DNA of 64,000 bases from an uncultured delta proteobacterium (GCA_963696385.1 CAVOKF010000002.1:32001-96000); one strand, 5' to 3'; positions 26,712-56,603 are shown, counted from the first letter of the stretch. Made by a program: numbers and translations. Notes: a model not told the origin generated them from the letters alone.

Positions 26712-27347
26712 ATGCTGACGGCAGCTTGGGATGTGGGACGCCTCATCGAGCTGCGATTCTCCGGAAGCCCGACCCTCGAGGACGTCGCGCAGTTCGAGCG
26801 CGACTCGCACGCGTGCGTGGTGTCCTGCGTCGCACGGACCAAACAGCCCGTGGTCGTATGCACCGACATTCGGGCGACGCAGTTGTTCCGACCCGCGGTG
26901 ACAGACCGACTGATTCAAACGATGCGGGGGAACAATCGGATGGTGGAACGAAACGGCATGCTCGGCAACGGCAGCGCGCTGATGGCGCTGCAGATCGTCA
27001 GGCTCACCAACGAGGCGGCGGGCGACCATCGAAGACGCATTTTCGAGGAATTGGAACCGCTGCTCGATTGGCTCGCTGCGTCGTTGACGGCCGAAGAGCA
27101 GGCCGGAGTGCGCCATTTCTTGGCTGGGCACGAGATGAGCGGGACGGGACAGGAAACAACTACGACAGTCGCGACGGGCAGGGATAGGCGCACGCCGCGC
27201 CCGTTCCCCCACTCCCGAAGTCGTCTCTTCCCAGACTCGAGGCCGCAAGGGAACGCGCCGAGCATGGCGATCGAGCTCAAGGTGGATGTCGGCCGCCTTT
27301 CGCGGGGACTTCGGAAACGAGCCAAAATCGGCCCACGGTTCGAGTGA
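26712..27347 (+). CDS. Hypothetical STAS/SpoIIAA-like myxobacterial protein
   Basis: VGRLIELRF...VVCTDIR...LQIVRL...RRIFEE...LDWL pattern. Confidence 0.5.
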   Translation: MLTAAWDVGRLIELRFSGSPTLEDVAQFERDSHACVVSCVARTKQPVVVCTDIRATQLFRPAVTDRLIQTMRGNNRMVERNGMLGNGSALMALQIVRLTNEAAGDHRRRIFEELEPLLDWLAASLTAEEQAGVRHFLAGHEMSGTGQETTTTVATGRDRRTPRPFPHSRSRLFPDSRPQGNAPSMAIELKVDVGRLSRGLRKRAKIGPRFE

Positions 27348-27416
27348 AAACGAACGCCCCAAAGGGATTCTACGTTAACTCACCGTCTCGCTGGCCTCTT
27401 CGTCGACCGGCAGGCG
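27322..27416 (-). repeat. dif-like repeat copy G
   Basis: aacgccccaaa-gggatt-ctacgttaact (27353-27380) followed by ctcttcgtcgaccggcaggc. Confidence 0.7.
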
Positions 27417-27451
27417 TGCATCCGACGCACGGTCAGCGTCCAGCCCACGGT

Positions 27452-30100: not shown

Positions 30101-30245
30101 TCCAAGCACGAACGCCACTTCGAGCGGCGAGGGCGCGAGTCGCGCACGGGCGGAAAAAATCACGCAGGGGCATCGAAGTCCGTTCCTGCGCTGGTTGCGC
30201 TGGTCCGATCGCGGTCAAACGACCACGGCTGAGGGATGGGATGCC

Positions 30246-30354
30246 AAATTGGCGCGGTTGCACGGACCACGAACGCCCCAAAGGCGTTATATGTGACCGC
30301 GGAGGTTTCCGCGGCTCTTCGTCGACCGATACCCTTTCGCCCGGCTACTCGCTC
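30246..30354 (-). repeat. dif-like repeat copy A
   Basis: aacgccccaaa-ggcgtt-atatgtgaccg (30272-30299) plus accessory segment ending ctactcgctc. Confidence 0.85.
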
Positions 30355-31088
30355 GACGCTGAGTCCTGGCGGCACAAAGAGGCCCAGCAGCGCTCTCGGT
30401 CCAAAAGAAACCTACGGACGACGACGCCTGACGGCGTCCGGATGCGCCCCGCGGTCGGCGACCGCCTCTCCGCGGGGCGTCCTTGAATTCGAAAGTTCCG
30501 TCACTCGGGAAGGCTTACCTTAAAGCAATCCCAGATGCCATTGTGGACATCGTACTCGCAAGAGCCTGAGGAGCAGTCGCTATCGTTTACACATACGTCG
30601 CACGCCGTGTGGCAGTAGTTCGCGGCCTGGCCGCACGCGTCGCCGTCCACGGACCGCCGTCAGAGCTCTCCCAGCATCCTACGGACGGAGGAGGAGCCGG
30701 AGGAGTCGCTGTGCTCGTCGTGCCAGGCGCCGGGAGGCCCGCATCGGCGCGCAGCGCGAAGCTGTCGCAACCGGCGCCGCCGCTCGGCGAGCACCATCCA
30801 CCTGGCCCGCAATCGGAGTCGACGGTGCAGTTGCCGCCCGCATAGCAGAGGTTCGGCGCGGAGGTCGATGTTGAGGGGCGACAGACGCAAGGTCCGACGT
30901 GACAGTAACGACTCCGCCTTTGCTGACTTGAGCGACGATGCGGTGCGGCTGCATGTGCCACACAACGACACCGCCGATCGTGCGGAGGAGCGACGGCAGC
31001 GTAAGCCCCATCGGTCCTCAAGCCGTAGCGCTCAGCAACTCGCTCGATTGCCTTTGCGGCCCGCCCCGTTGGGGCACCCTGGCGCCCC

Positions 31089-31557: not shown

Positions 31558-32854
31558 TAAGAGTCTTCGATCAGCCCATCCGACTTCAACTTGGTCAGCA
31601 TCGGCTCCATGTCGCTCCACTCGAACCGAGACCCGTCGTCGCGCCATCCGAGGCAATCGCCAGCGACGAACTCCCTCTCGGCGAGCAATCGCTGCACGAA
31701 CGGGATCGCCTCGCCGACCAATTCGACGGCGTGACTCGTCCCCACCGCAAGACACCCAGCGACGCTTCCGCGAAGTGTGCGAGCGAGCGTTTCAGAAGGG
31801 CTGCGAGCAAGCTCGCCCATATCATCGCTTTCGCGATAGCGGCCTTGCCCGTATCGAAGGCATGAAGGTTGGCGTGGGATTTGAACTCTTTGAACAGGAG
31901 TTCCACCTGCCAGCGGAGGCGATACAAGCCGGCCACGTCGGCGGCGGAGAAGCGCTTGCGAGCGAGGTTGCTGTGCAGGTACACGAACGTCTTCGCGTTG
32001 CGCTTGCCGCGCTTGTAGATCGCCACAATTCGCCCGCGATACACGAATGAATTCGCCTGCCATTCGATGTCGAGATCGACCGTGTGGGCCGGAAGCAGGT
32101 CCCAGTTCAACTTCTGGCCGAGCAACTTGGGGATGGATTTGCCGGCGCTGTCGAAAGCGGCCCGAATGGTGGGTCGAATGTTTTTGGTTCCGCGGACGAT
32201 GAAGGCGCCGCCCGCTTGGTCGACGTCGAAAAAGAATTTTCGCTCCTCGTACCCTCGGTCGGCCAGAAAGAGCCGCTCGCGAAGACTCGCGGCCTCGGGA
32301 CGGTAGGTTCGCTCGGTCTCCTTGTCGGCCGTCAGGGCGACGATGCGCACATCGTCTTGGAGCAGACTCATCGTGACGTGCAGTTCCACGGCGGCAGGCG
32401 AGATTTTTGTAAAGCGGCCCGGCCATGTGCCTTTCAAGTCGTCCTTGAGCGCGAACGACGTCCCGTCGTGAATGACGATGTCCCGAAAGGTCGACAGTTT
32501 GGGGGACACGGCGTGCAGAACCGGCTGGCTCATCTTCTGTACCGTCGCTTCCAGCAGCATCCGAAACATCTCTGGAAAGGACGCTTGCGCGAGCCGGTTG
32601 TGAAAGGGCTTATATCGCAGCGAAAGGCCCGCGAATTTCCGGAACGTCCGCAGAATATCGGCCAACCACTTGGCGTGGCCCGACCCGAGCGTGGACAGCA
32701 CCGCCACGACCATCGCCAGCGGCATCACCTTGCGCACTCGCCGTAGCCAGCCGCTACGTCTCGCGATCGCGGTCACCTGCTCCTCGCCGAGTACTTCCGT
32801 AAGCCGTTTCGCATACACGCCGACTCCGGCGCGTGTCCTGTTTGATCCGTGCAT
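31557..32854 (-). mobile_element. IS4-family transposase with frameshift near the 3' end
   Basis: IHDGTSF, LADRGY and LYRLRWQVELLFKEFK (Y-R-E-K motif). Confidence 0.88.
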
Positions 32855-32981
32855 CGGGGGTCTCCTTTCGCGTTGTCTCACAACAGCGTCTAGAGAATCC
32901 CCGATGCCTTTGACTATCCAATTCGTGCACTATGCACGTAAGTGATCGAGATCACTCGGGAAATAAAGATCCTACCTATGT

Positions 32982-36900: not shown

Positions 36901-37057
36901 GCACGTGCGATGCGGCTCCGCCGCCCTCTCGAGCGACACGTCGCATGCGTTGGAACCGTTGGCGTAGTCGGTCCACACCGTAGCCGTCGAGCAACTCGCG
37001 CCAGAGGCGTTGGACCCGCGAGGACCGTGGACGTTGGGAGCTTGGAGGCGGCGAACC

Positions 37058-37170
37058 GAGCGAATAGTCGCTCCAAAGCGTATCGGCCAACGAAGAGACC
37101 GGGAAACCGCCGCAGTCACATAAGATCCCTTTGGGGCGCTCGTTCTCACTGAAACAGCGGACCGATTTGG
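37058..37170 (+). repeat. dif-like repeat copy B
   Basis: gagcgaatag...cgaagag...cagtcacataa-gatccc-tttggggcgct; ungapped 84-bp match to copy A. Confidence 0.85.
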
Positions 37171-37399
37171 TCCGGGCGGACGACTCGCGCGGTACGGTCG
37201 ACGGGTGCTTGACGTCGTGCTGGCGGTGACCTGCGTCATCGCCATCGTCCATTCGGCAAGGCAGCGGTTCGTATTCGGGATCGCGTGCGCAATGGCGATC
37301 GTCTACGGACTCGTCGCGTCGGCGTTTTGCGTAATGACCGCTGTCCGGCGCGGAGTGGTCGGCGCGGAGTACGCGTTCGGCCTTCTTTTCCTCGAGATG

Positions 37400-38016: not shown

Positions 38017-38352
38017 TCAGGCAGCGGCGCGGTAGTCATGATGAAGGCCGCCGAGCACGGGGATGGCCTCGACCGGGCCAGCAAACTTGGCTCGGGAGCG
38101 TTCCGTGCGGACCGGAGCCTGCTGGCCGATGCCCTGGTGAGGCCGAGCCGGGTTGAAGTAGCTCAGGGCATACTCGGCGAGGAGATACCGCAGGTGCCGC
38201 TCCGACAGGATGATCACGTGGTCGAGGCACTCGCGGCGGACGCTACCCAAGAAGCGTTCGCACACCGCATTCATCAGGGGCGCCCGGACCGCGGTGTGCA
38301 GGACGCGCGTCCCGACGCCCGCGGCGACGCGGTCGAAGACGGCTCCGAACTG
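38017..38352 (-). pseudogene. rve integrase-core IS transposase 3' fragment
   Basis: MNAVCERFLGSVRRECLDH...RPHQG...LGGLHHDYR; paralog of 53418-53924. Confidence 0.85.
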
Positions 38353-38489
38353 CCCAGGTCAAACCCCGAGTACGTGGCGCACCCTCGCCATCGCCCGCCA
38401 GAATCTCGGAGGCTCGTCCGTGACCGACTTCAGAACCGCGGAACATGGGCTTTTTTGCCGCGTTTGCCGCGTTTCTGTTCGCGATCCAG

Positions 38490-38600
38490 GAGCGAGTAGG
38501 CGGCGCAAAGCTTGTCGGCCGACGAAGAGACGCGGAAACCGTCGCGGCCACATAAAAATCGCCTTTGGGGCGTTCAAAGCGCCGTCCCAATTGAGCAACG
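38490..38600 (+). repeat. dif-like repeat copy C (8-bp spacer)
   Basis: gagcgagtag...cgacgaagag...cggccacataa-aaatcgcc-tttggggcgtt. Confidence 0.85.
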
Positions 38601-39006: not shown

Positions 39007-40665
39007 TCAGGGGGTCCGCGCGCACCGGAAGCCCTTGTAGGTATCCGCGTTGAGCGGGGGGGCCCCTTGAAATTCGTGAGGGGAGCAGCCAACCCACCAG
39101 TCGCAACCCTGGACGCTTCGACTGTACTGCTCGGGCGGCGCGGGGACCAACCCCAGATACGCGCAATCGCGGCCCGGACAAGGGTACGACGAGGGAAATA
39201 CGTCCAGGGTCCACTCCAGTTCCTCTCCGACCATGTCGAGTTGACCCCAGTAGGCGGCACCCTGTAGCGCGGTTCCCACCGGCGCAACGGAGCACGAACC
39301 GACGGACCACCCCTCACTGCAGTCGAAGTCACACTGGCCGATCTGACCGCAACCGAGGTTGAACTCGCCGCAGGAGCTGGGACCGCAGGCCCTGAAGTTA
39401 GGCACACACCCACTCCCGGCGGTCGGCGCCGGAACGGGCTCGGGATAGTCGCAATCGACAATCGCGTACTCGGGACTCCATACCGCAGTCAGTTCGTTTC
39501 CGGCATCATAAGCGTCCGGACCTGTCGAGCCCCAAGGGTATTCGCGCTCCTGGCTGCCGCCCACGGCGGCGTAGTCCCATTCCGCTGCGCTCGGCAAAAA
39601 CCCGCCATCCCAAATGCAGAACGCATACGCCTGGTACCAGGTGATGCCGGTGGCCGGTAGGTTTTCCGGACTGCCCGCCGTGATCGGCCAAGTGGCACTC
39701 ACGAGCGAGCTCCAAGAAACCCCAACCGGCGCCAGTAGCGCGTTCCAGTCGGTCGCGTCCCAGCCGGTCTCGTACACCGGTTGCTGAGATTGGGTCACGG
39801 CGCTCGCATTGACCAATCCGAGACCCCCATTCACGTGCGTGTGCTTGCCGCTGCCGTTCGCAGGCGGAGCGCCGGAGGCGCCAGCGACGTAGTTCACGTA
39901 CTGCCGGAACCGGCCCGCCGTAACGAGATACTTGTCCAGACGAAAACCACTCACCGTGACCGGGGGGCCCTCCACGAGCGCTCCCGCGTCGGTGACGGTC
40001 GGGTTACTGTTCGCTGGAGCGGGCGCAGCGGACGCGGCGGCAACGCGGTAGTACGTCCCGCCCGGGACTTCCAGGCTCGTGCAGCAGCTTTCGGTTCCGC
40101 TGCCGCCCGGACCGCAATTGGTCATGCCGGGCCCACCGGGGGCGCAACTCGGGGCGACGGTCGTCGAGCCAACGCAGGCGCCATCGACGCAGTCCCCCGT
40201 GAAGCACGTCCATACATTCCCCCATCCGCCGTCGGGGCCGCAGGTCTCGACGGCGTTGCCCACGCACTGCGTGGCCATCGGTGTGCAGACCGCCGACTCT
40301 TCGGTCGCGGCGTCCGCGGTTGGGGCGTCCGCGGTTGGGGCGTCCGCGGTTGGGGCGTCCGCGGTTGGGGCGTCCGCGGTTGGGGCGTCCGCGGTTGCGG
40401 CGTCCGCGGTTGGGGCGTCCGCGGTTGCGGCGTCCGCGCTTCCGGCGTCGGCAGTTGTGGCGTCCGCACTTCCGGTCGATCCCCAAGCACTCGAGAAACC
40501 GCTGGAGCTCGGGCTGCCGATCGATCCGCTTGAGGCGGGCGCGCTTGCGCCGGAGCGGCTGGGGGCCAGCGCCGAATCCGACGGCCCCAACGTGGGCTCT
40601 TCAGCGACTAGACCGCAACCGAAAAGCACGAGGGCGACCGCGCCCGAAACGCAAACTCGGCCCAT
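39007..40665 (-). CDS. FGE-sulfatase/SUMF1 (C-type-lectin-fold) lipoprotein
   Basis: Lipobox LFGC; FRLDKYLVT, AFCIWDGGFLPSAAEW, YPWG, GFRCAR. Confidence 0.88.
   Translation of the reverse strand: MGRVCVSGAVALVLFGCGLVAEEPTLGPSDSALAPSRSGASAPASSGSIGSPSSSGFSSAWGSTGSADATTADAGSADAATADAPTADAATADAPTADAPTADAPTADAPTADAPTADAATEESAVCTPMATQCVGNAVETCGPDGGWGNVWTCFTGDCVDGACVGSTTVAPSCAPGGPGMTNCGPGGSGTESCCTSLEVPGGTYYRVAAASAAPAPANSNPTVTDAGALVEGPPVTVSGFRLDKYLVTAGRFRQYVNYVAGASGAPPANGSGKHTHVNGGLGLVNASAVTQSQQPVYETGWDATDWNALLAPVGVSWSSLVSATWPITAGSPENLPATGITWYQAYAFCIWDGGFLPSAAEWDYAAVGGSQEREYPWGSTGPDAYDAGNELTAVWSPEYAIVDCDYPEPVPAPTAGSGCVPNFRACGPSSCGEFNLGCGQIGQCDFDCSEGWSVGSCSVAPVGTALQGAAYWGQLDMVGEELEWTLDVFPSSYPCPGRDCAYLGLVPAPPEQYSRSVQGCDWWVGCSPHEFQGAPPLNADTYKGFRCARTP
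40306..40470. repeat. 15-bp coding tandem repeat (ADAPT/ADAAT linker)
   Basis: gcgtccgcggttggg repeated about 8 times plus degenerate copies. Confidence 0.92.
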
Positions 40666-41994: not shown

Positions 41995-42008
41995 GTTCAA
42001 TCTCCTCG

Positions 42009-42131
42009 GAGCGAGTAGGCGTCGCAAAGCCTGCCGGTCGACGAAGAGCCGCGGAAGCCGCCGCGGAAACATATCGCGTCTTAATCGCGTCTTAGGAGCG
42101 TCCGTTGTCGCTGAAGCGGCGAAAGATTTGG
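42009..42131 (+). repeat. dif-like repeat copy D with internal 11-bp duplication
   Basis: gagcgagtag...cgacgaagag...cggaaacat, then atcgcgtctta twice (42073-42094), then ggagcgtcc. Confidence 0.8.
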
Positions 42132-43161: not shown

Positions 43162-43331
43162 CGCCGGGCCTTCTTGGCTCGACCCCGTTGCACTCCTTAT
43201 CCGCACGTAAAGCACCTCAGCGGATTTCAACGACGGCAGGACGCGGTCCTGATTTGGCTGCTCGCAACGATAGCCCGAACGTCGCGATCGGAGCTGGCCG
43301 GCTCCACCCTTTCTTAGCTCGATCGTTCGCG

Positions 43332-43422
43332 GCGAGTAGTAAACCCAAAGCACGTCGGTCGACGAAGACCTGCGGGAAGCCACCGCGGTCACATATATGC
43401 AATAGGCGATTCTGCGACTGCG
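43332..43422 (+). repeat. dif-like repeat copy E
   Basis: gcgagtagtaaaccc...cggtcacatat-atgcaa-taggcgattct. Confidence 0.85.
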
Positions 43423-43940
43423 CCGGGTGACGCATGCGAGGAGCGCGGACGGGAGACGGCGCAGTTGCTCAATCGACCGGTTGGACGGAGCCGGTGCGCG
43501 GCAGAGACCGGGCGCTTCCGGAGGCCGTCTTGGCGGGGCCGCTATGGGGAAAGAGGCCGTACGGGTTCGGTCCGCGGCTGCGGGCTGGCTGGTGGCGTTC
43601 GCGTGGGTAGCGCAGGCAGAGGCGGGCGCGCGCGCCGAGGGGGGCCGACCGCGGTCCCAACCGGCGAGAATGGGTCGACCGATCCGCGCGCCGAGTGGGT
43701 ACGCCGTCGCGAGCGCACACGTCGCCCCGGCCGCGCCGAGGGCACAGTTGGGCGTGGTTGCCGACGCTTCGTTGCGGTCACGCGGCCTCCGGCGGCGCGC
43801 GCGCGAGGGCGTGGGGATCGTCGAGGGGCCGACGCACGACGGCGAGTGCGCCGCAGGCGGGGCATCGACGCACGTCGATGCCGGTCAAGTGTCGCAGCAG
43901 CTCTTGCCAGGGCAGCGCGGCATCGGGCGCGCCCAATAGG

Positions 43941-44033
43941 GAGCGAGTAGTAAACCCAAAGCACGTCGGTCGACGAAGAGCTGCGGGAAGCCACCGCGGT
44001 CACATATCGCATCTTATGACGCGTCCGTTGCCA
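43941..44033 (+). repeat. dif-like repeat copy F (3' exon of the group II intron)
   Basis: cggtcacatat-cgcatc-ttatgacgcgt; 64/65 identical to copy E over 43943-44007. Confidence 0.85.
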
Positions 44034-45973
44034 GTCGGGTAGGCCGGGGATGTTGTCTCCCCGGCCCCCCTTCGGATCCGGACGTGCGCAATTCACGCAT
44101 CCGGCTCTTCGGTCACGGGTTCGCTGCGCGCGGGAGAAATGGGTGAGCGATGCGAGGCGGCGGGAGCGGGTAGCGCTCCAGCAGAAGCCGCATTCGCTTC
44201 CAAGGCATATGGCGTCGTTGCGACCGGCGGTTGAGCCACCGGCGCCACAACGCAATAGTCTTGCGGCAGAAGAGCGCGATGGCGCGGAAATTCCCGGTGA
44301 TTCCGTAATATCCGTAGTGACCACGCAGCTTTTGCCCAAGTGCCTTCTGCTGCTCGCGGATGGCGTCGTGCCGGTGCTCCCTGCACCATTGCGCGACCCG
44401 CGACACCGCTCTCCGGAAGCGGTCTTTGGCTGTTTTGCGCATGACAATCCACTTGCCAGAGCGAGCTTTGCCCCAGTAGTGCGTGAAGCCGAGTAGGTCG
44501 AAGCTGCCAGGACCTCGGTCGCCGCCATCGACTTTCGATGAGCGACGGTCAGGGCGCTGAAACTCCACCAACCGCGTCTTCTCGGGATGCAGCGCCAGGC
44601 CGTACGCACCCAATCGCTTCGGCAGCACGTCCAGCACCTTGCGGGCATCCACTTCATGCGAAAACAAAAGCACTGCATCGTCCGCGTAGCGGACGAGCAG
44701 CGCCTTGCCCGAAAGCCTTGGTTTAACTTCGCGCTCAAACCAGACGTCGAGCACCTCGTGCAGGAAAATGTTCGCCAGAATCGGCGAAATCACCCCGCCC
44801 TGCGGTGTGCCCGTTTCCGGATACGCAATGGCTCCGTCTTCGAGCACGCCCGCATTCAACCACTTTCCGATGAGCCGCAGCAGCACTCCGTCGTGCACCC
44901 TGCGGCGTAGGACTTCCCGTAATTTCCCGTGGTCCAGGACGTCGAAGAACTTGCGTACGTCGACCTCGAAAACCCACCCGCCACCCATCATTACCGCTTG
45001 ATTCTGCAGGGTCTCGAGCGCTTGATGCGCCGAGCGCCCCGGCCGGAAGCCGTACGAGCAGTCCAGAAAGTCCTGCTCGTAGACCGCCTCCAGCACCATC
45101 GCGACCGCGCGCTGCAATACCTTATCTTCGAAGCTGGGAATGCCGAGCGGTCTCGTTTCCGAGCCGCTCCCCTTCGGGATATGGACTCGCCGCACCGGCG
45201 GTGCTCGGTACGTACCAGACTTCGCGCGTTCGAGAAGCGACTGCAGGTTGCCCTCCAGGTTTTCCGCATACTCTTGCGCGCTCTGCCCGTCTACGCCACG
45301 AGCCCCGTCCTTGCGTGTGCGTCGGTACGCTTCGCGGAGCCAGTCGGTATCGATGTGATGGGCAAGCGTTCGGAACGCCATATCGGGCGCGTCCTTCGCC
45401 AGCTTTCGAGTTTCGTTGAGATGGGAATTGAGTTCGGCGCCTCGGCCATCGTTCCCTCCAGCGGTTCCGTGTTTTCCGGTGCCGCCCTTTGCTCGGCGGG
45501 GTCCCTTGGGACGGTTCCCCCGCGTCGTCGCTCCTACTGCGGCACTCCGACTTCCCGTCGCCCATCGCGCTTGGCTTCGTTGCCTTCGCCGCGCACTACC
45601 GCCGCAATTCAACAGCCGGAGGCGCCGGGATATCCCAGGTTCCTGGACCGTCCTTTGCGTACATGCCCTGCTGTTCACCCCGGCAGAGTCGACGGGCCAG
45701 GCCTTCGGGCTCGCCCGACTTTTCGGCACGTCGATGTTGCCTTCCGCGTTTCAAAACGCGTCGGCCTCCGCGAAGAGACGGATTTCGAGGCTCTTTGCAC
45801 GGCCTGCACGCCCGCTGTGTACGCTTCGCAGCCGCGATTGCTCGCGAACCACGCAACACTCGCTTCCGGCTGGCGGCCCCGCCTTGGCCGGTCGGGAATT
45901 TCACCCGCGGACGGTTACGTGAGGTTTCCGCTCTTACATGTCTTCCTCCTCACCCAGGCTTCGCCTGGCGCAC
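44034..45973 (-). mobile_element. Group II intron (1940 nt)
   Basis: 5' GTGCG at 45973; domain V GAGCCGGATGCGTGAATTGCGCACGTCCGGATC; domain VI hairpin ending CCCGAC at 44034. Confidence 0.93.
44113..45449 (-). CDS. ltrA: Group II intron reverse transcriptase/maturase without endonuclease domain; 5' frameshift
   Basis: [47 protein letters not shown]. Confidence 0.92.
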
Positions 45974-46591
45974 TTGAAAGTGCCATCCAATTGAGTGAAC
46001 GACGGGACCCGCATGCTTCCCGGCCTTCTCCTGCGGCATTTTGCCTTGGGTGCCGCCTCTCGGGAGGCGCGCAGCAGGCGCAAGCGGCGGGCATCCGCCT
46101 CCCGACGGGAGGCATCTCCATGCCCGGCACCGGAGCCACGCACAGGCATCCCTTTGATGCCGAGCATGGCTTGATGCCGAGCATGGCGAGGAGCCACCCG
46201 TTTGCGGCGGCGAGCACCGTCGAGACAATGCCGGGCACGGAAAAGGCCGTCTCTCCGCCCGGGCGCTGGCCGAAGGGCCAAGCCGTCAGGGTTGGGCACG
46301 CTGAAGAGCGTGCCTCCCGGGCCCCGAAGCCGCCCGCCGACGGCGGGCCTCTCCCCGTTCCCCCCTGAGCAGCGCGCAGCGCGGCTTGCCTCCGGCCCCG
46401 GCGGAGGCCGGGGGAAGGGCGACCGTGCCCTGCGTAGCCGAAGGCGAAGCATGGGAGCCCGCACAGGCGGCGGGCCGCCGAGCACGCGATTGGGGGAACT
46501 CGGCCGCCCGCAGTCGCCCGAAGCTGCCGTGAGGCAGCGTAGGGGGGCGAGGACGGACGCAAGGGGGCACCAGCACGCCTCGGCTCTGCGG

Positions 46592-46620
46592 TTGATTGAT
46601 CGCACGAATAGTATTATGAT
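46592..46620 (+). promoter_or_regulatory. Sigma70-type promoter of the vapBC-like operon
   Basis: TTGATT-17 bp-TATGAT, ending 32 bp before ATG 46653. Confidence 0.65.
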
Positions 46621-46652
46621 TCCAGTAGTTAGGAACAACGCCGAGGACCCCC

Positions 46653-46886
46653 ATGCGCGCCCCTACCCTCAAGCTGCCCGACCCGACGCTCGACCGGAAG
46701 CTGACGGCAATCGCCAAGCGGCGGCACACGACGCGCGCCAAGGCGTTGCGCGAGGCGCTGGACGCGTTGGACAAACAGACGACGAACCCCACCGTCGCAT
46801 CGCTGGCAGACGATCTGATTGGGTCGCTGGAAGGACCGGGCGATCTGCTCTCGAATCCGAAGCACATGGCTGGCTACGGGCGGTGA
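46653..46886 (+). CDS. RHH/CopG-family antitoxin
   Basis: TLKLPD.TLDRKL..IAKRR.TTRAKALREAL; GTGA overlap with the PIN gene. Confidence 0.8.
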   Translation: MRAPTLKLPDPTLDRKLTAIAKRRHTTRAKALREALDALDKQTTNPTVASLADDLIGSLEGPGDLLSNPKHMAGYGR

Positions 46887-47296
46887 CGGCGATCGTCGAT
46901 ACGGGGCCGCTGGTCGCCCTGCTCGACGCGCGTGAGCCGCACCATGCCTGGGCGCGCGAGACGCTCGGCAGGCTGGAGACGCCGATTCAGACCTGCGAGG
47001 CGGTGCTCAGCGAGGCGTGCTTCCTGCTGCGCGGTGTGAAGGGCGGCCGCAACGCAGTACTGTCGCTCGTGAGCCGGGGCATCGTCACACTGGACTTCCA
47101 GCTCGCTCCCGAACTCGAAGCGGTCCGCAAGCTCATGACGAAATACACGAGCGTGCCGATGGCGCTCGCCGACGCGTGCCTCGTGCGCATGAGCGAGCTC
47201 ACGGCGCGCAGCGCCGTCGTGACCGTCGACGGAGACTTTCGCATCTACCGCCGCAACGGGCGGCAGGCCATCCCGGTCGTGATGCCGGAGGACTGA
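46883..47296 (+). CDS. PIN-domain VapC-like toxin
   Basis: IVDTGPLVAL...VLSEACFLL...LADACLV...TVDGDF. Confidence 0.88.
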   Translation: MTAIVDTGPLVALLDAREPHHAWARETLGRLETPIQTCEAVLSEACFLLRGVKGGRNAVLSLVSRGIVTLDFQLAPELEAVRKLMTKYTSVPMALADACLVRMSELTARSAVVTVDGDFRIYRRNGRQAIPVVMPED

Positions 47297-47299
47297 GCG

Positions 47300-47497
47300 C
47301 TATCGGGGAGGCCCCTCATTCCGGGGAAGGACGTCCCCGGCCGTCGCGTCCGCACCAGCCTCGGAGGCCTCGTATTCCTCTTTCAGCAGCCGAAGCCCGG
47401 CCGCGCACACGTCTGCGACGCTGGCGTAATGGCCGGCAGTGACCTCCGCTTCGGCGAAGGCAAGAAGATCATCTGGCAAATGGACTGTAAAGGACAT
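47300..47497 (-). CDS. ParD-like RHH antitoxin, orphan or truncated
   Basis: VHLPDDL.AF....V.AGHYASVADV..AGLRLL. Confidence 0.7.
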   Translation of the reverse strand: MSFTVHLPDDLLAFAEAEVTAGHYASVADVCAAGLRLLKEEYEASEAGADATAGDVLPRNEGPPR

Positions 47498-47536
47498 GGA
47501 CTCGCTCGAACCGTTCCCTCACTCTCTTCCGCTTTG

Positions 47537-47552
47537 GCGAGTAGTAAGCCCA
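47537..47552 (+). repeat. Left end of dif-like repeat (copy J); 5' exon of the second intron
   Basis: gcgagtagtaagccca matches gcgagtagtaaaccca of copies E/F at 15/16. Confidence 0.65.
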
Positions 47553-48241
47553 GTGCGACCAGGCAAGGCTGGTCTGAAAGGAATGAGATGCGATGAGCTC
47601 ATAAAATTCAGAGAGTCGTCCAGCGGGTGCGAACCCCGCCCGGCGAAGGGCCGAGCCCGTCCAGCCGGAAGCGAGGCTTGCGCCGGCCGCCGCAAGGCGT
47701 TCGGCGATGCGTAGTCACGCGAGTGAGTGGGCCGTGGGGAATGCAGCCACGAAAACTACATCAGTCCGGATGCCGAGCGCTTTGGGCGGCGCGAAGGCGA
47801 CGGCGGCTGCTGCGCAGCAGGGCGAGCAGGAGCCGCATCCGGCGGGGTCTACGACCACGGCACGCCACAAGAGGACGAACCAGACACCTGGGAGGCCCTC
47901 GCTTTTCCTCGGTGAAATCCCGGAGCAACGGAGAGCCGGTCACCCGTCTCCGACGCGCCGAGCGCACGCGGATGCGCGCACGGCCGGCCGAGCGCCTCCC
48001 CGTGAGGGGCTCCGCGCAGAACAAGCATTCGCGCCGAGGTAGGCCGCTGGCGAGGGGAGACCGGAGCCACGGCCGAAGGAAGCGGGGGAGTCGGAGGGCC
48101 GCATACGAGCGTGGACGTCGGGGAACGGATTGGCACCCGGACCCGGCCGAGCAAAGGCGGCCCGTGCTGAGTTGAACTTCAGGAGGGAACCATGCCCGAC
48201 GCATCGACGTTGGAAGACATGTCACCGAAACTATTGAAGGT
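47553..48241 (+). mobile_element. Truncated group II intron (5' domains and start of the RT ORF)
   Basis: Starts GTGCGACC; GNRA-rich hairpins; AGGAGGGAACC-ATG and MPDASTLEDMSPKLLKV resemble the RT start of the first intron; then an abrupt break. Confidence 0.75.
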
Positions 48242-49326: not shown

Positions 49327-52300
49327 TTGCGATGGCAGACTTGTTTTCGGCGCCCTGACGGCCATGTGCCGGCAACCGGATCGGACGTGCGACGGGCGGC
49401 GCGCCGAGGCGTATCGGCGCGCATTCCATGGCCGCAGAGGGGATTGGACCTGACCGGGCGGCTGCATGCAGCCGTCGGGGCTTTCGCGAGCGTCGGCCCG
49501 ACCGTCCTCGGGCCGTGCCTCGGCGTGCTCCGCCGACTCGCGAGCGTCGCGATCCTTGCCGCCCTGGCGACGGGCTGCTCGAGCAAGGTCATTCAGGCCG
49601 GCGGCCTGGAGCTGATCCTCGAGACGAACATGAAGCAGGGGACGGACTTCAATTCGATCACCGTCGACATCCAGGAAGAGCAAGGCGAAGCCGGTACGTT
49701 TCGGACCGTCACCGACGTCCCCATCCCCGTTCAGATGGGCACGCTGCCCGGGACGATCTCCATCGCCGCCGGCAAGAGCGGCAACGAAGTGGCGCTCATC
49801 ACGATCACGGCGATGTTGGGCAACACGCCTGTGGTCGACCGCGTGATCGAGGTTCAGGTGCCCGAGGATCGGGTCGCCGAGCTGGTGGTCTTGCTTTCGT
49901 CGAATTGCGCCGGCCAGCTTCACACGAGCTGCCAGGATCCGCAGAGCGAGAGCTGTCAACCGGCTTCGGGGACCTGCGGTTCGGATTCGGTGAATGCTTC
50001 GACCTTGCCCACCTACTCGCCGAACGAGTTCGAAGGGGGGTCGGCGGACGCGACAATCGTCGAAGCCGGGCTCGAGGCCGCAACCGCGGAAACCGGGCCC
50101 GCGGCGCCGCCGGATGCGACGGTCGCCGAAACGGGGTCAGACGCCGCACCGGACGGCACGGCACCCGGCGATGCTTCCGCCGAGCCCGACGCCGTGCCGG
50201 ACGGGCCCCCGTGCACACCGGGTGGATCGTGTACTTTTTCGTCGTGTCAGTCGGGTTCGTACGTGTGCGAGGACGGCGGACGGGTCTGCAGTCCCATTGC
50301 GACGGGACGGATCGAGGCGGGCACGGCCTGCTCCGAGCCTGACGATGCGGATGTCGCGATCGACGCTGGAGCGGAGACGTTCGTGTGCAACGCGGCCGGG
50401 GCGTGCGTCGAGTGCAACGCCGGGGGCGATTGCTCCGAACCCGCACAGCCTTGCATTCGCAAGGCGTATGCCTGCTCCTCGGGGGTGGCCACGTGTCAGA
50501 CGGTCGGAGACGCGGTCGAAGGTTCCTCGTGCGGCGCAGGTTTGTACTGCTACAACGGCGTTTGCAGCGCCTGCACGGTCGGCGCCGCATGCGCACCGGC
50601 AACGCAGCCGTGTCACCTCGGCAGCGTCACGGCCTGCACGGCCGGCGTGGCGACGTGCACCGACCAGACCACGAACGCCGCGGCGGGCAAGTCGTGTGAA
50701 ACCGCGACAGTCCCGATCGGTGTCTGCGACGGCGCGGGCAACTGCGTTTCGTGTACGCCGAACGCGCTATGCACCCCCACGGGCAACACGTGCCAAAGCG
50801 GGACGATGTCCTGCTCGTCCGGCCCCGAGTGCGTCGCCGGAAGCGCCGTCAACCAGGGGAAGCCATGCGGGACCGGCAAGGTTTGCTCCAGCGGAACCTG
50901 CGTGGCGTGCGGCGCGGCGTCCTGCCCCGATGGGTGCTGCAATGCCGACGGGTGCGTCGCCGCCGAGACGACGACCGAATGCGGCCTGGGCGGCGTCGCG
51001 TGCAGCACGTGTCCCCCGCCCGCCGTGGGGGGCGTGGCGGCGTGCGACACGTCCACCGGCGCCTGCGCGGTCACGTGCAACGGGGGCTACCACGCTTGCT
51101 CGGGTGCGTGCGCGGCCAACACGAGTGTGAACACCTGCGGGAGTTCGTGCACGCCATGCGCCCTGCCCAACGCGACGTCCACGTGTACGGGCGGCGCCTG
51201 CGCCATCGCGACGTGCGACCCCGGATTCGGCAACTGCAACGGCCTCGCCTCGGACGGCTGCGAGACTCCCCTCGATACCACCACGAACTGCGCCGGATGC
51301 AACGTCGCCTGCACGCAGCCGAACGCCACGGCGACGTGCGCGACGGGCGTGTGCGCCATCGCCACGTGCGACGGGGGCTACCATATTTGCTCGGGTGCGT
51401 GCGCGGCCAACACGAGTGTGAACACCTGCGGGAGTTCATGCACGCCATGCGCCCTGCCCAACGCGACGTCCACGTGTACGGGCGGCGCCTGCGCCATCGC
51501 GACGTGCGACCCCGGATTCGGCAACTGCAACGGCCTCGCCTCGGACGGCTGCGAGACTCCTCTCGATACCACCACGAACTGCGCCGGATGCAACGTCGCC
51601 TGCACGCAGCCGAACGCCACGGCGACGTGCGCGACGGGCGTGTGCGCCATCGCCGCGTGCGATGAGGGCTACCATATTTGTTCGGGTGCGTGCGCGGCCA
51701 ACACGAGTGTGAACACCTGCGGGAGTGCGTGCACGCCGTGCGCCCTGTCGAACGCGACCTCCGCGTGCACGGACGGCGCGTGCGCCATCGCGACGTGCGA
51801 CACCGACTTCGGCAATTGCAACGGCCTCGCCTCGGACGGCTGCGAGGTGGACCTATTGACTTCGTCCACGAATTGCGGCGCGTGCCAACACGACTGCTTG
51901 GGCGGAGAGTGCTTGGACGGCGAGTGTCAGCCCATTGCGATCGTGCCGGCGACGGCTCAGCCGACCGCGGTCACCAGCGACGGCACGCAGGTCATGTGGA
52001 CCAACTCGGCCGGCGCGGTCCAGGGAGTCAAAGTCACCGGCGGCACGACGTGGACGTTGGGCAGCGCGACCAACGCAAGCCCGTACATCACCAACGACGG
52101 GACGTACACGTATTGGGCGAACAACCTGCCCTGCGCGGATCCCTTGGGGTCGGCGGCCGTCCTTTCGGCGCTCGACACCGGCGGCCCGGCGACGACGCAG
52201 TGGTCCATCGGGAACTGCGGCGTACCGGTCACGATGCAGAGCGTGCTGGCGACCGGCACGACTCTCTATTCCGTCCTGTTCAACCCCTTTGACGGCGAAT

Positions 52301-52824: not shown

Positions 52825-52904
52825 CCGTTGCCGTGTTCGGCGGCACCGGCTACGGCGAGCCTGTCCTGGCTCCTTGGGGATGGCCTCGACTATGTTCGCG
52901 CACG

Positions 52905-53924
52905 ATGTTCGCCATCGTGACCGTGCTTGCCGCCGCTCTCGTGGACCTGTTTCGCTCGCGACGGTCGTTGCTCACCGAAAGCGCTTTGCTCCGACACCAA
53001 CACCCCGTGCTGGAGCGGTCGGTCGCCCGGCCGCACGTGACGCGGCTCGACCGGATCGTGCTGGTGGCACTCGCTGCCATCACGCCGACGTGGCGGAACC
53101 TGCTGCGGGTGCTCCAACCCGAGACGCTTCTCCGCTGGCACCCCGCCGGCTTCAAGGCTCTCCGGCGCTGGCGCAGCCGACCAGGGCCGACGTTGCGCAT
53201 CGCGGCCGAGACCGTGGCGCTGATCCGCACGATGGCGCGTGAAAACTCGCTTTGGGGTGCGGAGAGGATTCGCGGAGAGTTGCTCAAGCTCGGAATCAAA
53301 GCCAGCAAGCGCACGGTGCAGAAGTACATGCGCGCCGCGCGACCGCAGCGGCCTGAAAGGCAGCGCTGGTCCACGTTTCTGCGAAACCATGCCTGCGACA
53401 TCTGAGCTTGCGATTTCTTGCAAGCCTACGATTTGTTCTTCCGCCCCATCTTCACGCTCGTGTTCATCGAACTGGCCACGCGCAACGTCGTGTTCGCCGC
53501 AACGACGCGCACGCCGTCACAGGCATGGGTCGCGCAGCGGCTTCGCAACGCGACCCCCCTCGGCGTGGCACCGAAGTTCTTGATTCGCGACCGAGACGAC
53601 AAGTTCGGGACCGCCCTCGATGCGCTGGCCCTTGCCACCGGCATCCGGGTGATCCGCACGGCGGTGCGCGCGCCCAACATGAACGCCATCTGTAAACGCT
53701 TTCTCGGCTCGCTGCGTCGCGAGTGCCTCGACCACATCCTGGTGCTTGACGACCGGCACTTGCACCGCGTGGTCGCCGAGTACATCCGCTACTTCAACGC
53801 CGCACGCCCTCACCAAGGGCTCCGCCAGCAGACGCCGGTGCCCGCCGTGCGCCCCAGCGACGGGAAGGTCGTCCGATTGCCGGTGCTTGGCGGCCTGCAT
53901 CATGACTATCGCAGAGCTGCATGA
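52905..53924 (+). pseudogene. rve integrase-core IS transposase with internal stop
   Basis: PETLLRWH, WGAERIRGEL, TGA at 53403, ACDF, LIRDRD, RRECLDH. Confidence 0.88.
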
Positions 53925-54094
53925 AAGACGCGATTGCGCGCCGATTCGCGAAGTAGCCAGCACGGTGCGAGCGAGCTGCCTCGGTTAGAGCTCGCCGAAC
54001 GCGAAGTTGGGCTTCGCGATGTCGCTGAGCGCGTGGTTGACCAAGTTGCATTAGTCGGTTGACGAAGTTGCTCTCAAGTGCCACCCTAAGGATC

Positions 54095-54679
54095 ATGATT
54101 GGTGACGTGTCCGTTCACGGGCGGCGAATCGTCGTGAAGACGAAGGCACGCGGCGACTTCCTACTGCGAGTCGCCCACGCAACGGCCGACGTGCCCGAGG
54201 CCGAGCTGGGTGGCCCCAGGGTCCTCCGAGTGCTGCTCAATCGGCTCGCGGATAACCTGCTTCCGACGGACGACCCGCTGGTTCATGCGCGGCTCCGTGG
54301 CCTGCTTGCCATGCGGGAGCTCCTCAACGCAAACGGAGGGGCGCTTTCCGCAGACGACGTCCGGACGATGCTTGGCATCTCGCGGCAAGCCGTGGACAAA
54401 CGCCGCAGAGCCGGGAGGCTACTCGCTGTCGAGCTGCCTCGCCGGGGACTTTTCTATCCTGCGTGGCAGTTCACCCCTGCAGGCAGCACCCTTTCCGGCA
54501 TGACCGAGATTCTGGCGGCGCTGAGGAAGCACCAAGTCGACGGTTGGGCACAGCTGCGGTTCTTTTTGAGCCTCAACGACCGGCTCGGCGGACGGCGCCC
54601 GATCGACGTCATCGGCGAAGGAGATGTCGATGCCGTGTTGGAAGCCGTCGGCGCGTTCGATGAGCATGGCGCCGCGTGA
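54095..54679 (+). CDS. Xre/MbcA-like antitoxin
   Basis: HTH LGISRQAVDKRR, YPAWQF, LGGRRPID; coupled to a RES gene. Confidence 0.75.
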   Translation: MIGDVSVHGRRIVVKTKARGDFLLRVAHATADVPEAELGGPRVLRVLLNRLADNLLPTDDPLVHARLRGLLAMRELLNANGGALSADDVRTMLGISRQAVDKRRRAGRLLAVELPRRGLFYPAWQFTPAGSTLSGMTEILAALRKHQVDGWAQLRFFLSLNDRLGGRRPIDVIGEGDVDAVLEAVGAFDEHGAA

Positions 54680-55269
54680 GCGTGCAGCACCCCAATCCGC
54701 CGGGGTCGACCGACGCGTTGCGGCTGCTCATCCGACGCATCTCCTACGGTTGGTACCGCATCCACCACACCGGCAACCCCCCCCTACAGTTTGGCACGAG
54801 ACCGAGCAACCGGTTTGATTCGCCGGCCGGTGAATTCGGCGTGCTCTACGTCGCCAAGGACGCGTACGGAGCCTTCATCGAAACGTTCGGCCATGAGACC
54901 GGACGAACACCGCTGGTCACACAGGCCGAGCTGCACGCCCGCGAAATCTCCATCGTCAGCAGTACGCGGGCACTACGGCTCGTCAATCTCCGGGGCGAAG
55001 GGCTATCCCGCATGGGCGCGGACGTAGCGCTCACCAGCGGGTCCGATTATGCCCTTTCACGACGTTGGGCGATGGCCCTTTATCGCCATCGGAGGCAACC
55101 CGACGGCATACTGTACCGGGCGCGTCACGACCCCGCTCGAACGTGCGCCGCTCTCTTCGATCGCGCGGCTCTCGCTCTTACGGCACGGCAAACCGGAACG
55201 CTGCTCGTCCCGGCCCATCTCGGCCTCCTAGCCGACATCCTCGACAGGTATGGCTATGGCCTCGGGTGA
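54676..55269 (+). CDS. RES-domain toxin (putative NAD+ phosphorylase)
   Basis: WYRI, NRFDSP, VLYVA, FIET, DGILYRAR, ALFDR. Confidence 0.85.
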   Translation: MSVQHPNPPGSTDALRLLIRRISYGWYRIHHTGNPPLQFGTRPSNRFDSPAGEFGVLYVAKDAYGAFIETFGHETGRTPLVTQAELHAREISIVSSTRALRLVNLRGEGLSRMGADVALTSGSDYALSRRWAMALYRHRRQPDGILYRARHDPARTCAALFDRAALALTARQTGTLLVPAHLGLLADILDRYGYGLG

Positions 55270-55376
55270 GGCGTGGGGCGGCGGGGACATGACCATCCAG
55301 ACACACCGCTTGCCCTTGAGTTCCGGCGCGGCGGCTCGTCGTCGGCACGCTGCGAGGAAAGGCCAAAACGCCGAAG

Positions 55377-56603
55377 CCGTCCTGTCCGGAAACCCATCGT
55401 CGGCGATTGTCGCATAAGTTCGGGGCAAATCGCAGGCTTGAAGGTGCGGCAGGACACGGGCAGTGTGGGCGCGGTCCGATGCTCCCGGCGACGCTCCAAT
55501 TCATCATCGCGATGGTCGCGCACGCGATCAATGAGCGGATGGCGCGGAGGGTCGACTACTTGCACGAGGAGGTTCGGGTCCTCAAGGAGGCTCTCGCGGC
55601 AGCGACCGGCACGATCCGGATCGACTTCACCGCCGACCAGCGGCGCCGCCTGGCGCTCAAAGGCAAGCTGCTGACTGCCAAGGAACGCAGGGCCTGCTGC
55701 CAGATCGTGCGCCCCGAGACGATCCTCGCCTGGTTTCGCCAACTGGCCTCGGATAAATACGACAGCTCGGAGACTCGCAAGGTCGGCCGGCCCCGCAAAG
55801 CGAGCGACAGTCGCCGACTCGTCGTCGAGATGGCGCGCGACAACCCGGGATGGGGGTACACGAAAATCCGCGATGCGATGCGAGGGCTGAAGATCGAGAT
55901 CGGCCGCACCACCGTCGCCAGCATCCTGGCGGACGCCGGCGTAGAGCCGGCGCCGGATCGCAATCGCAAACGGACCTGGGCGCACTTCCTCAAAAGCCAC
56001 TGGGAGACGCTGTACGCGTGCGACTTCTTCAGCGTCGAAGTCTTGGGCATGTTCGGGACCGTCCGCACCATGGTGTTCTTCGTCATGTGCATCAAGACCC
56101 GCGCCGTGCGGATCGCCGGGGTCCGCATCGCCCCGGACGGCGATTGGATGAAGCAGATTGCCCGCAATCTTCTGGATCCGGTAGACGGATTTCTGCGAAA
56201 CGCGAGCCATCTGATCCACGATCGGGACCCCGTGTTCACCGAGGCATGGACGGCGCTGCTCGAGACTGGCCGCGTGACCTGCGTGCCCATTCCGGCGCGA
56301 AGTCCAAATTGCAACCCCCACGCCGAGCGTTTCGTGAAGAGCATCCGCAGCGAGTGCTTGGACCGCTTCGTCATCTTCGGCGAGCGCCACCTGCGGCATC
56401 TGATCCGCGAGTTCGCCGCCCATTACCACACCGAGCGCTACCACCAAGGACTTGGCAGCCAAATCATCAGGCCGACGCCGTCGCCGAGCAACGACAACGC
56501 GTCGCTTGGCGCGATCGGGTGTCGATCGCGTCTCGGCGGACTCCTCAATTTCTACCGTCGCGAGGCTGCGTGAAGAGCGGCGACGGCTTTTCGGACATCA
56601 CGG
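55377..56603 (+). mobile_element. rve-type IS with intact transposase (CDS 55479-56573)
   Basis: Imperfect 23-bp IR ccgtcctgtccggaaacccatcg / ccgtgatgtccgaaaagccgtcg; ACDFF, LIHDRD, AERFVKSIRSECLD. Confidence 0.85.

Follow-up and report, generated by a model that had tools for sequence, protein, structure and literature searches.

Two sister group II introns without an endonuclease probably retrohome into a multi-copy 115-nt repeat of an uncultured delta proteobacterium

A stretch of 64,000 nucleotides (nt) from an uncultured delta proteobacterium (GCA_963696385.1, CAVOKF010000002.1:32001-96000; hereafter the window) contains two group II introns, int1 and int2, each of which lies in a copy of a repeat of about 115 nt. 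Very probably, they represent two sister lineages of introns devoid of an endonuclease which retrohome into this multi-copy repeat by base pairing with it. Homing into the repeat is supported because the same points are entered in several copies with different flanks and in two repeat subfamilies, because exon-binding sites (EBS) of the introns pair with intron-binding sites (IBS) in the repeat, and because the motifs recognized in this way occur almost only in repeats. An earlier reading of the window, made from its sequence only, had proposed the repeat family as a homing target, and had placed the introns next to those of class C, which target attC sites. The recurrent junctions, the EBS/IBS pairing and the location of the motifs mostly in repeats speak for the first part of that proposal. 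Its class C/attC framing is not supported, as recognition would involve EBS1 and a probable EBS2, and no integron integrase was found.

Results

Insertion points in the repeat

The window has seven clear copies of the repeat, starting at 37057, 38489, 42008, 43330 and 43940 on the plus strand and at 30355 and 27425 on the minus strand (Table 1). A profile built from the window copies was searched with nhmmer against the 6.94-Mb genome to which the window belongs (G000; its contigs are cited as C1, C2 and so on), and gave 117 matches at E<1, including 91 at E<=0.001 with a combined length of 8,883 nt (0.13% of the genome). The matches occur in both orientations; C6 has a cluster within its first 130 kb, C4 and C7 have one at either end, and C2 has a cluster as well. 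When 48 full-length copies were aligned, several subfamilies became apparent, and the repeat showed sharp edges, from GCGAGTAG at its outer end to CCGATTTG.

Int1 is antisense to the repeat model, its 5' exon being the last ~22 nt (ending in ...CAATTGGATGGCACTTTCAA) and its 3' exon the remainder (starting with TGGCAACGGACGCG...). Excision of int1 joins ...GCGTCCGTTGCCA to TTGAAAGTGCCATCCAATTGAG, which matches the uninterrupted copy at C7:1383867 and copies 'C' and 'D' of the window; that removal of this intron restores a repeat like 'C' and 'D' had been recognized in the sequence-only reading, and the C7 copy provides a further match. All three 5' junctions of int1 in G000 read CAATTGG(R)(Y)GGC(R)CTTTCAA directly followed by GTGCGCC, and three out of four 3' junctions of the int1 family read CCCGAC followed by TG(R)CAACG..., i.e. 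by the rest of the repeat. The outer flanks of the int1 copies differ, and two subfamilies of the repeat were hit.

Int2 is inserted in the sense orientation. Its 5' junctions in G000 (five of five) come after GCGAGTAG plus 8 nt, in the form TAAGCCCA four times and GGCCGTTCA once, and the sequence farther upstream is unrelated; this is in agreement with the earlier statement that int2 begins at 47553 directly after the opposite end of the repeat. The 3' ends (four of four) read ...CTACTCGAC followed by AAGTGCGTCGGTCGAC and continue into the rest of the repeat, and the flanks, when joined, form an exact uninterrupted repeat. Like int1, int2 resides in two repeat subfamilies. The short flank of int2 in the window was considered separately, since the earlier proposal depended in part on the significance of a 16-nt match. 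With up to three mismatches allowed, the 16-mer GCGAGTAGTAAGCCCA has three matches in the window (0 or 1 mismatch each) versus 0.20 expected, and none of 100 shuffles reached three. The match is thus significant, and the genome-wide int2 junctions concur with it.

All junctions of the close families of int1 and int2 in G000 fall at the same two positions of the repeat, except for one diverged int1-like fragment, which is discussed below. The same junctions were encountered on four contigs of this genome and again in a second assembly, and in public metagenomes there are contigs that continue from the 3' end of int1 into the repeat.

Exon-binding sites and target motifs

Domain I was aligned for int1, int2 and eight homologues from other genera (10 introns), and the longest pairing run was compared between cognate and non-cognate pairs of intron and exon. 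In each intron, the hairpin loop that corresponds to int1 positions 216-227 can pair with the final 5-7 nt of the intron's own 5' exon, with a mean of 5.8 for cognate versus 3.74 (standard deviation 0.93) for non-cognate pairs; the pairs found in homologues include GAACCG/CGGTTC, TCAGAG/CTCTGA and CGTAAG/CTTACG. By this covariation, the loop is EBS1. A second loop, located ~25 nt upstream of it, gave a cognate mean of 5.6 versus 4.27 and is a probable EBS2. Pairing of domain I with the exon ends, which the earlier reading had suggested as a check, was found for EBS1 in both introns and is probable for EBS2.

The int1 motif, GAYGG-N3-TTTCAA-T, occurs in the genome at six unoccupied positions, all six in repeats, and three more copies of it run into intron GTGCG. 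A loose int2 motif gave 24 unoccupied matches, 18 of them in repeat matches and one more in a weak repeat fragment, next to five occupied copies. Occupancy is ~4 of 10 sites for int1 and 5 of ~24 for int2. Invasion is restricted to subfamilies bearing the motif, and identical empty sites persist alongside the occupied ones. Recognition of this kind, through EBS1 and (probably) EBS2, is the mode of IIA/IIB introns and not the stem-loop mode of class C.

Table 1. Positions in the window of the two introns, their pairing sites and the copies of the repeat
Feature	Position	Strand	Evidence
int1, structurally complete group II intron, 1940 nt, 5' GTGCG ... 3' CGAC	44034..45973	-	RF02005 127.4 bits, RF00029 40.5 bits
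int1 domains V and VI	44034..44109	-	RF00029 40.5 bits, cut-off 40
int1 reverse transcriptase/maturase open reading frame from internal ATG, 422 amino acids	44113..45381	-	TIGR04416 335.8 bits, cut-off 300
Site of 10-nt deletion, window copy of int1 only; N-terminus of reverse transcriptase frameshifted	45404..45405	-	alignment with C7 copy and six homologues
int1 EBS1 TTGAAA, hairpin loop, intron positions 220-225	45749..45754	-	pairs with IBS1 TTTCAA; covaries across 10 homologues
int1 probable EBS2 CCGTC, intron positions 193-197	45777..45781	-	pairs with GATGG (window), GACGG (C7 copies)
Repeat copy 'F', model positions 3-97; int1 3' exon read on minus strand	43940..44033	+	nhmmer E=7e-23
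Rest (~22 nt) of repeat copy 'F', int1 5' exon (minus strand); IBS1 45974-45979, IBS2 45983-45987	45974..45995	+	junction comparison
First 16 nt of repeat copy 'J', int2 5' exon; IBS2 GTAGT 47541-47545, IBS1 GCCCA 47548-47552	47537..47552	+	16-mer matches, junctions
int2, 689-nt 5' fragment: domains I-III and first reverse transcriptase codons; remaining intron and repeat absent	47553..48241	+	RF02005 105.5 bits
int2 EBS1 TGGGC	47783..47787	+	same alignment column as int1 EBS1; pairs with GCCCA
int2 probable EBS2 ACTAC	47755..47759	+	pairs with exon GTAGT, 2 nt upstream of IBS1
Uninterrupted repeat copy 'D'	42008..42131	+	nhmmer E=9e-28
Repeat copy 'C', shorter variant	38489..38579	+	nhmmer E=1e-21; alignment
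Uninterrupted repeat copy	37057..37173	+	nhmmer E=1.5e-29
Repeat copy truncated on 3' side	43330..43397	+	nhmmer E=6.5e-15
Uninterrupted repeat copy	30241..30355	-	nhmmer E=1.9e-29
Diverged repeat copy	27319..27425	-	nhmmer E=3.9e-22

The two introns and their proteins

Scanning with Rfam models at the gathering threshold gave three matches in the window, all within 44034..48241. Int1, with its minus-strand ends GTGCGCC at 45973 and CCCGAC at 44034, has the features of a group II intron: matches to the model of domains I to IV (RF02005, 45669-45901, minus strand, 127.4 bits, cut-off 49) and to that of domains V and VI, GTGCG and CGAC termini, and an open reading frame (ORF) for a reverse transcriptase (RT)/maturase. 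Its domain V is ~34 nt long. A second copy of int1 in G000 (C7:1357017-1358966) is 99.4% identical. The ancestral Shine-Dalgarno sequence and ATG, at 45449, are out of frame with the RT in the window copy, which lacks 10 nt retained in the C7 copy and in all six aligned homologues. Since contigs from three of four public metagenome/metatranscriptome runs also contain these 10 nt, the intact int1 is the common form. Judging from the ORF, the protein of 422 amino acids could still be made from the internal ATG at 45381. The int1 sequence is present in contigs of two RNA libraries, which is not a proof of transcription.

Int2 begins with GTGCGACC at 47553 and matches RF02005 at 47631-47857 (plus strand, 105.5 bits, cut-off 49). 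The region from 47537 to 48241 is 99% identical to full copies at C6:18186 and C6:39041 and unrelated to them beyond; because the similarity ends at 48241, int2 of the window is a 5' stump. It is devoid of domains V and VI, of which domain V was seen by eye in the full copies elsewhere. The int2 copy at C6:17900-22500 (L001) has a TIGR04416 match of 323.3 bits (cut-off 300). As the int1 and int2 proteins share 53% identity, the introns are different yet related. Together with the Rfam matches and the intron ends, this agrees with the earlier description of two different group II introns, a full one on the minus strand and a second one starting at 47553. No HNH or other nuclease domain was detected at E<=1 in a domain search of the RT/maturases of int1 and int2 (422 and 439 amino acids, respectively), and both are without the DNA-binding/endonuclease domain.

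At two loci a third intron, int3, is nested in int2 directly after domain V of the latter (positions ~2300-4301 of L001, and L002 on C7 of G000). This intron, which lies outside the window and whose boundaries were set by eye, has an RF02003 match of 111 bits, its own RT (TIGR04416, 366 bits) and a long domain VI. The arrangement resembles twintrons, or nested bacterial group II introns.

Further junctions were noticed in G000. In the locus C4:81200-83800 (L083), near C4:81445, a fourth intron family (int4; RF02003, 61 bits) starts with GTGCAGCG after ...GTTGTCATTGAAA of the repeat, which makes its site a third insertion point; the other int4 copy, at C3:47477, lies outside repeats. At C4:49577 and C2:104000-104107, a further element ending in ...GGCCGGACGGTTAC adjoins the repeat at about model position 16, and at C2 this flank (ending in ...GGACGGTTA) leads into the 5' end of yet another intron, GTGCGCC, close to an RF02005 match of 72.9 bits. 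At C7:1421597-1421802, int1 has its usual 5' exon derived from the repeat, and after ~98 nt it passes directly into the outer end GCGAGTAG of a complete repeat copy; from this junction, it looks as if a repeat element had landed inside an intron.

Nature of the repeat and its surroundings

An IS91-type Y2 transposase (PF04986) is encoded at four loci, at all of which the repeat lies downstream of the gene, in one orientation. Similarity among the four copies of this insertion sequence (IS) ends exactly at the outer end of the repeat, and at the one locus whose Y2 transposase ORF was mapped, 46-66 nt separate the stop codon from the repeat. This adjacency suggests a rolling-circle transposon of the IS91 type, of which the repeat is likely the terminal module, accompanied by many solo derivatives. 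The label 'dif-like', given to the repeat in the sequence-only reading, is doubtful because the repeat is found at the outer end downstream of four out of four such transposase genes. The stretch then called the dif core varies between subfamilies in the 48-copy alignment, with an indel of 12-14 nt.

An integron was considered and rejected: the best TIGR02249 score, for an integron integrase, was 68.5 bits versus a cut-off of 265, and RNAalifold, run with DNA parameters on both strands, did not yield a consensus fold for the repeat. An association of the repeat with the stop codon of upstream ORFs was likewise discarded, the open-frame lengths at the copies examined showing no consistent frame.

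Repeats delimit cassette-like units of 0.6-3.5 kb, with toxin-antitoxin pairs among them. Between int1 and int2 there is a cassette-like pair of an RHH antitoxin and a PIN toxin (46653-46886 and 46883-47296, plus strand), as well as a ParD-like antitoxin fragment (47300-47500, minus strand). A DDE transposase and several rve-type integrase fragments occur at 31595-32881, 38017-38274 and 52833-56573, in a mosaic formed by broken mobile elements and split genes (for an epimerase, a histidine kinase and RCC1-repeat proteins). Two tandem repeats were also seen in the window, one of 15 nt in 10 registers within an ORF with an FGE-sulfatase domain (40272-40482), and a 291-nt tandem triplet within an ORF of 1165 amino acids that has no Pfam match (51072-51944).

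Other genomes

Homologues of int1 were matched in 50 of 100 other genomes of the family, with ~69-76% identity for matches longer than 1 kb. At 14 homologue loci with a readable junction the flanks are unrelated to the repeat, an outcome which the sequence-only reading had named as one that would speak against homing. The repeat itself was not found there: its hidden Markov model, searched against 19 loci around int1 homologues of other genera, gave one non-significant match (E=0.052), and one repeat copy compared by BLAST with the 100 other genomes gave one match of 27 nt. Because those genomes are without the repeat and each EBS1 fits its own exon, the unrelated flanks indicate retargeting rather than a refutation, and the proposed homing still stands.

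A pattern scan of 185,579 species genomes yielded one other repeat-rich genome, the Polyangiaceae metagenome-assembled genome (MAG) SPRUCE 451, with ~28 loci. Six repeat copies in this MAG stop at the same model position, where they adjoin the 3' end of int1, and have six differing outer flanks; the alignable int1 fragments among them share 97-100% identity with int1. Only one of the six (L069) corresponds to G000 throughout, namely to the C7:1357017 locus (99.97% identity over 3168 nt). For four int1 loci the flanks are without a match in G000, and the L076 flank matches C7:113989-116194, where G000 has no repeat. Repeat-bearing contigs were also met under other phyla, in a Candidatus Cybelea bin and an Acidobacteriaceae bin (L042 and L060/L077). 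The former also has the int1 5' end (100% identity), the latter is 99% identical to C6:44675-49457, and on these similarities both look like mis-binning of this myxobacterial lineage.

Discussion

According to the mechanism that we favor, EBS1 TTGAAA and the probable EBS2 CCGTC of int1 would pair with GA(Y)GG-N3-TTTCAA close to the repeat's inner end, with insertion in front of a T. On the opposite strand, EBS1 TGGGC and the probable EBS2 ACTAC of int2 would pair with GTAG(T/G)-N2-G(Y)(Y)CA, with insertion in front of an A at a distance of 16 nt from the outer end. The intron would reverse-splice into DNA and be copied by its own RT. Since the protein is without a nuclease, priming presumably depends on host replication, as for RmInt1. 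In the window, int1 is represented by a complete ribozyme with a frameshifted RT, and int2 by a dead 5' stump.

The closest precedent is RmInt1 of Sinorhizobium meliloti. This intron has no endonuclease, its natural target is the multi-copy ISRm2011-2 (PMC1802570; PMC8914252; PMC6698660), and in strain 1021 it occupies 3 of 13 ISRm2011-2 sites, on the lagging-strand template (PMC1802570). The introns described here share with it an RT/maturase without an endonuclease domain, EBS-IBS recognition, a multi-copy mobile target and partial occupancy (3/13 for RmInt1 versus ~4/10 and 5/~24). Unlike RmInt1, whose site belongs to an IS of the ISRm2011-2 group, they target a ~115-nt non-coding terminal module. 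Moreover, this small element harbors a separate site for each of the two sister introns, one per strand. With regard to classification, myxobacterial names had no match in the text of Toro and Martinez-Abarca 2013 on group II intron classes, and a search for a paper mapping RF02005 to an intron class turned up only two Rfam 15 records.

Several observations limit or weigh against homing into the repeat as outlined above, or parts of it. On the contigs that carry the copies, GC skew (100-kb bins) is close to zero, and such a flat profile gives no readout of the strand bias expected from fork-dependent priming. There is no direct sign of mobility or splicing: contigs of two RNA and two DNA public runs contained no joint across int1, be it an empty allele or spliced exons. 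The diverged int1-like 3' fragment at C1:356974 (89% identical) lies outside any repeat. Copies within one subfamily could have spread together with the repeat, so that only at least two events per intron are certain. Support for EBS2 is weaker than that for EBS1 because the matches are short, of 5 nt, and CCGTC recurs four times in the first 700 nt of int1; moreover, two of the 10 homologues have a match of just 4 nt, at the level of the non-cognate background (4.27). As to the nature of the target, the link to IS91 is an argument from adjacency, and the repeat may instead be a preferred landing site of that transposon. The IS91 target is GTTC/CTTG, and neither was found beside the repeat end, the flanks outside GCGAGTAG being variable (CGA, GGA, CGG, GGG and others).

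Near C1:356974, in the locus C1:355900-357600 (L084), a diverged int1-like 3' end (CCCGAC) continues directly into the opening 12 nt of an intron 5' end (GTGCGCCAGGCG), in a head-to-tail junction.

A chance resemblance of the intron flanks to the repeat, or an assembly artefact, has practically nothing in its favor except the shortness of the 16-nt flank in the window, and is barely conceivable given that the junctions are repeated across four contigs and a further assembly, and that public contigs run from the int1 3' end into the repeat. Another alternative is targeting of the class C/attC type, in which the folded stem-loop of a recombination site in an integron-like array is recognized with a short IBS1 only. 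Introns of the IIC-attC type, and also IIB introns in integrons and clusters of attC sites lacking integrases (CALINs), sit in repeated boundary elements of toxin-antitoxin-rich cassette arrays, and the paper describing them also discusses clustering of mobile elements that require single-stranded DNA (ssDNA) (PMC7923331). The cassette-like units bounded by the repeats, toxin-antitoxin pairs included, and the lack of an endonuclease in our introns are reminiscent of these, and int3, a different intron, does lie directly behind a hairpin, namely domain V of int2. Still, such targeting is very unlikely for int1 and int2. The integron integrase was not found (TIGR02249, 68.5 versus 265 bits), the repeats lie in either orientation and are distributed over several regions of the genome, and they have no attC-like consensus fold on either strand. 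A conserved hairpin cannot be present upstream of int2, since its copies have different 5' exons beyond the first 16 nt; int1, as read from the alignments, is inside a small hairpin and not after one. The probable EBS2-IBS2 pairing also argues against stem-loop recognition. Finally, class C introns have a domain V shorter than the ~34 nt of int1.

A different question is whether the introns entered the repeat once or twice and then merely hitch-hiked, the intron-bearing repeat being multiplied by its own mobility or by segmental duplication. All occupied int1 copies in MAG SPRUCE 451 and two in G000 belong to one subfamily with identical sequence, the edges of the 115-nt unit are sharp around the intron, as expected for a moving unit, and presence of the repeat differs between the genomes, as the L076 flank demonstrates. 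As a sole explanation, however, hitch-hiking is improbable, because each intron is present in two subfamilies, EBS1 is complementary to the site and covaries with it across homologues, and the only subfamilies occupied are those with the IBS motif, next to which identical empty sites persist. In addition, a terminal module interrupted by 2 kb would hardly be a good substrate for transposition. Homing by base pairing thus remains the reading that we prefer.

The target, the 115-nt repeat, has not been described before; homing into multi-copy mobile DNA is itself textbook knowledge. What is unusual is the convergence of two sister introns (and apparently of other lineages) on both strands of a single 115-nt element, which, moreover, may be part of a transposon that moves via ssDNA. 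With IS91/ISCR transposons the system has in common the Y2 HUH transposase (PF04986) with the repeat as the outer end downstream of it, at four of four loci, and the many solo ends that lie between cassettes. That likeness concerns the target and not the introns, and the absence of GTTC/CTTG beside the end is a difference. No group II intron homing into an IS91 end was mentioned in titles or abstracts among the literature matches listed. One could speculate, although we give it little credence, that a guild of at least 3-4 endonuclease-less intron lineages (int1, int2, int4 and the element ending in ...GGACGGTTAC) is specialized on an IS91-type terminal module, with the transposition intermediate instead of the replication fork as the point of entry. 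In the IS91 model, the strand read by int2 would be displaced as ssDNA, with the int2 site 16 nt from the nick. As hyperparasites, the introns would then inactivate the ends of a system that shuffles cassettes and that hits back, as in the repeat end joined to int1 at position 98.

These introns are a clean natural example of group II intron retargeting, as relatives have each an EBS1 that fits their own exon: the sisters are 53% identical in protein, their homologues in other genera 69-76% in DNA, and in the present case two such introns match two sites within a single 115-nt element. From the intron junctions, the exact borders and the subfamilies of the repeat can also be read; this repeat structures large cassette regions in the genome of an uncultured soil/peat myxobacterium, and its occupied and empty sites are possible strain markers. 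If the link to a rolling-circle transposon is true, this system would offer a way to ask whether endonuclease-less introns may use ssDNA other than that of replication forks.

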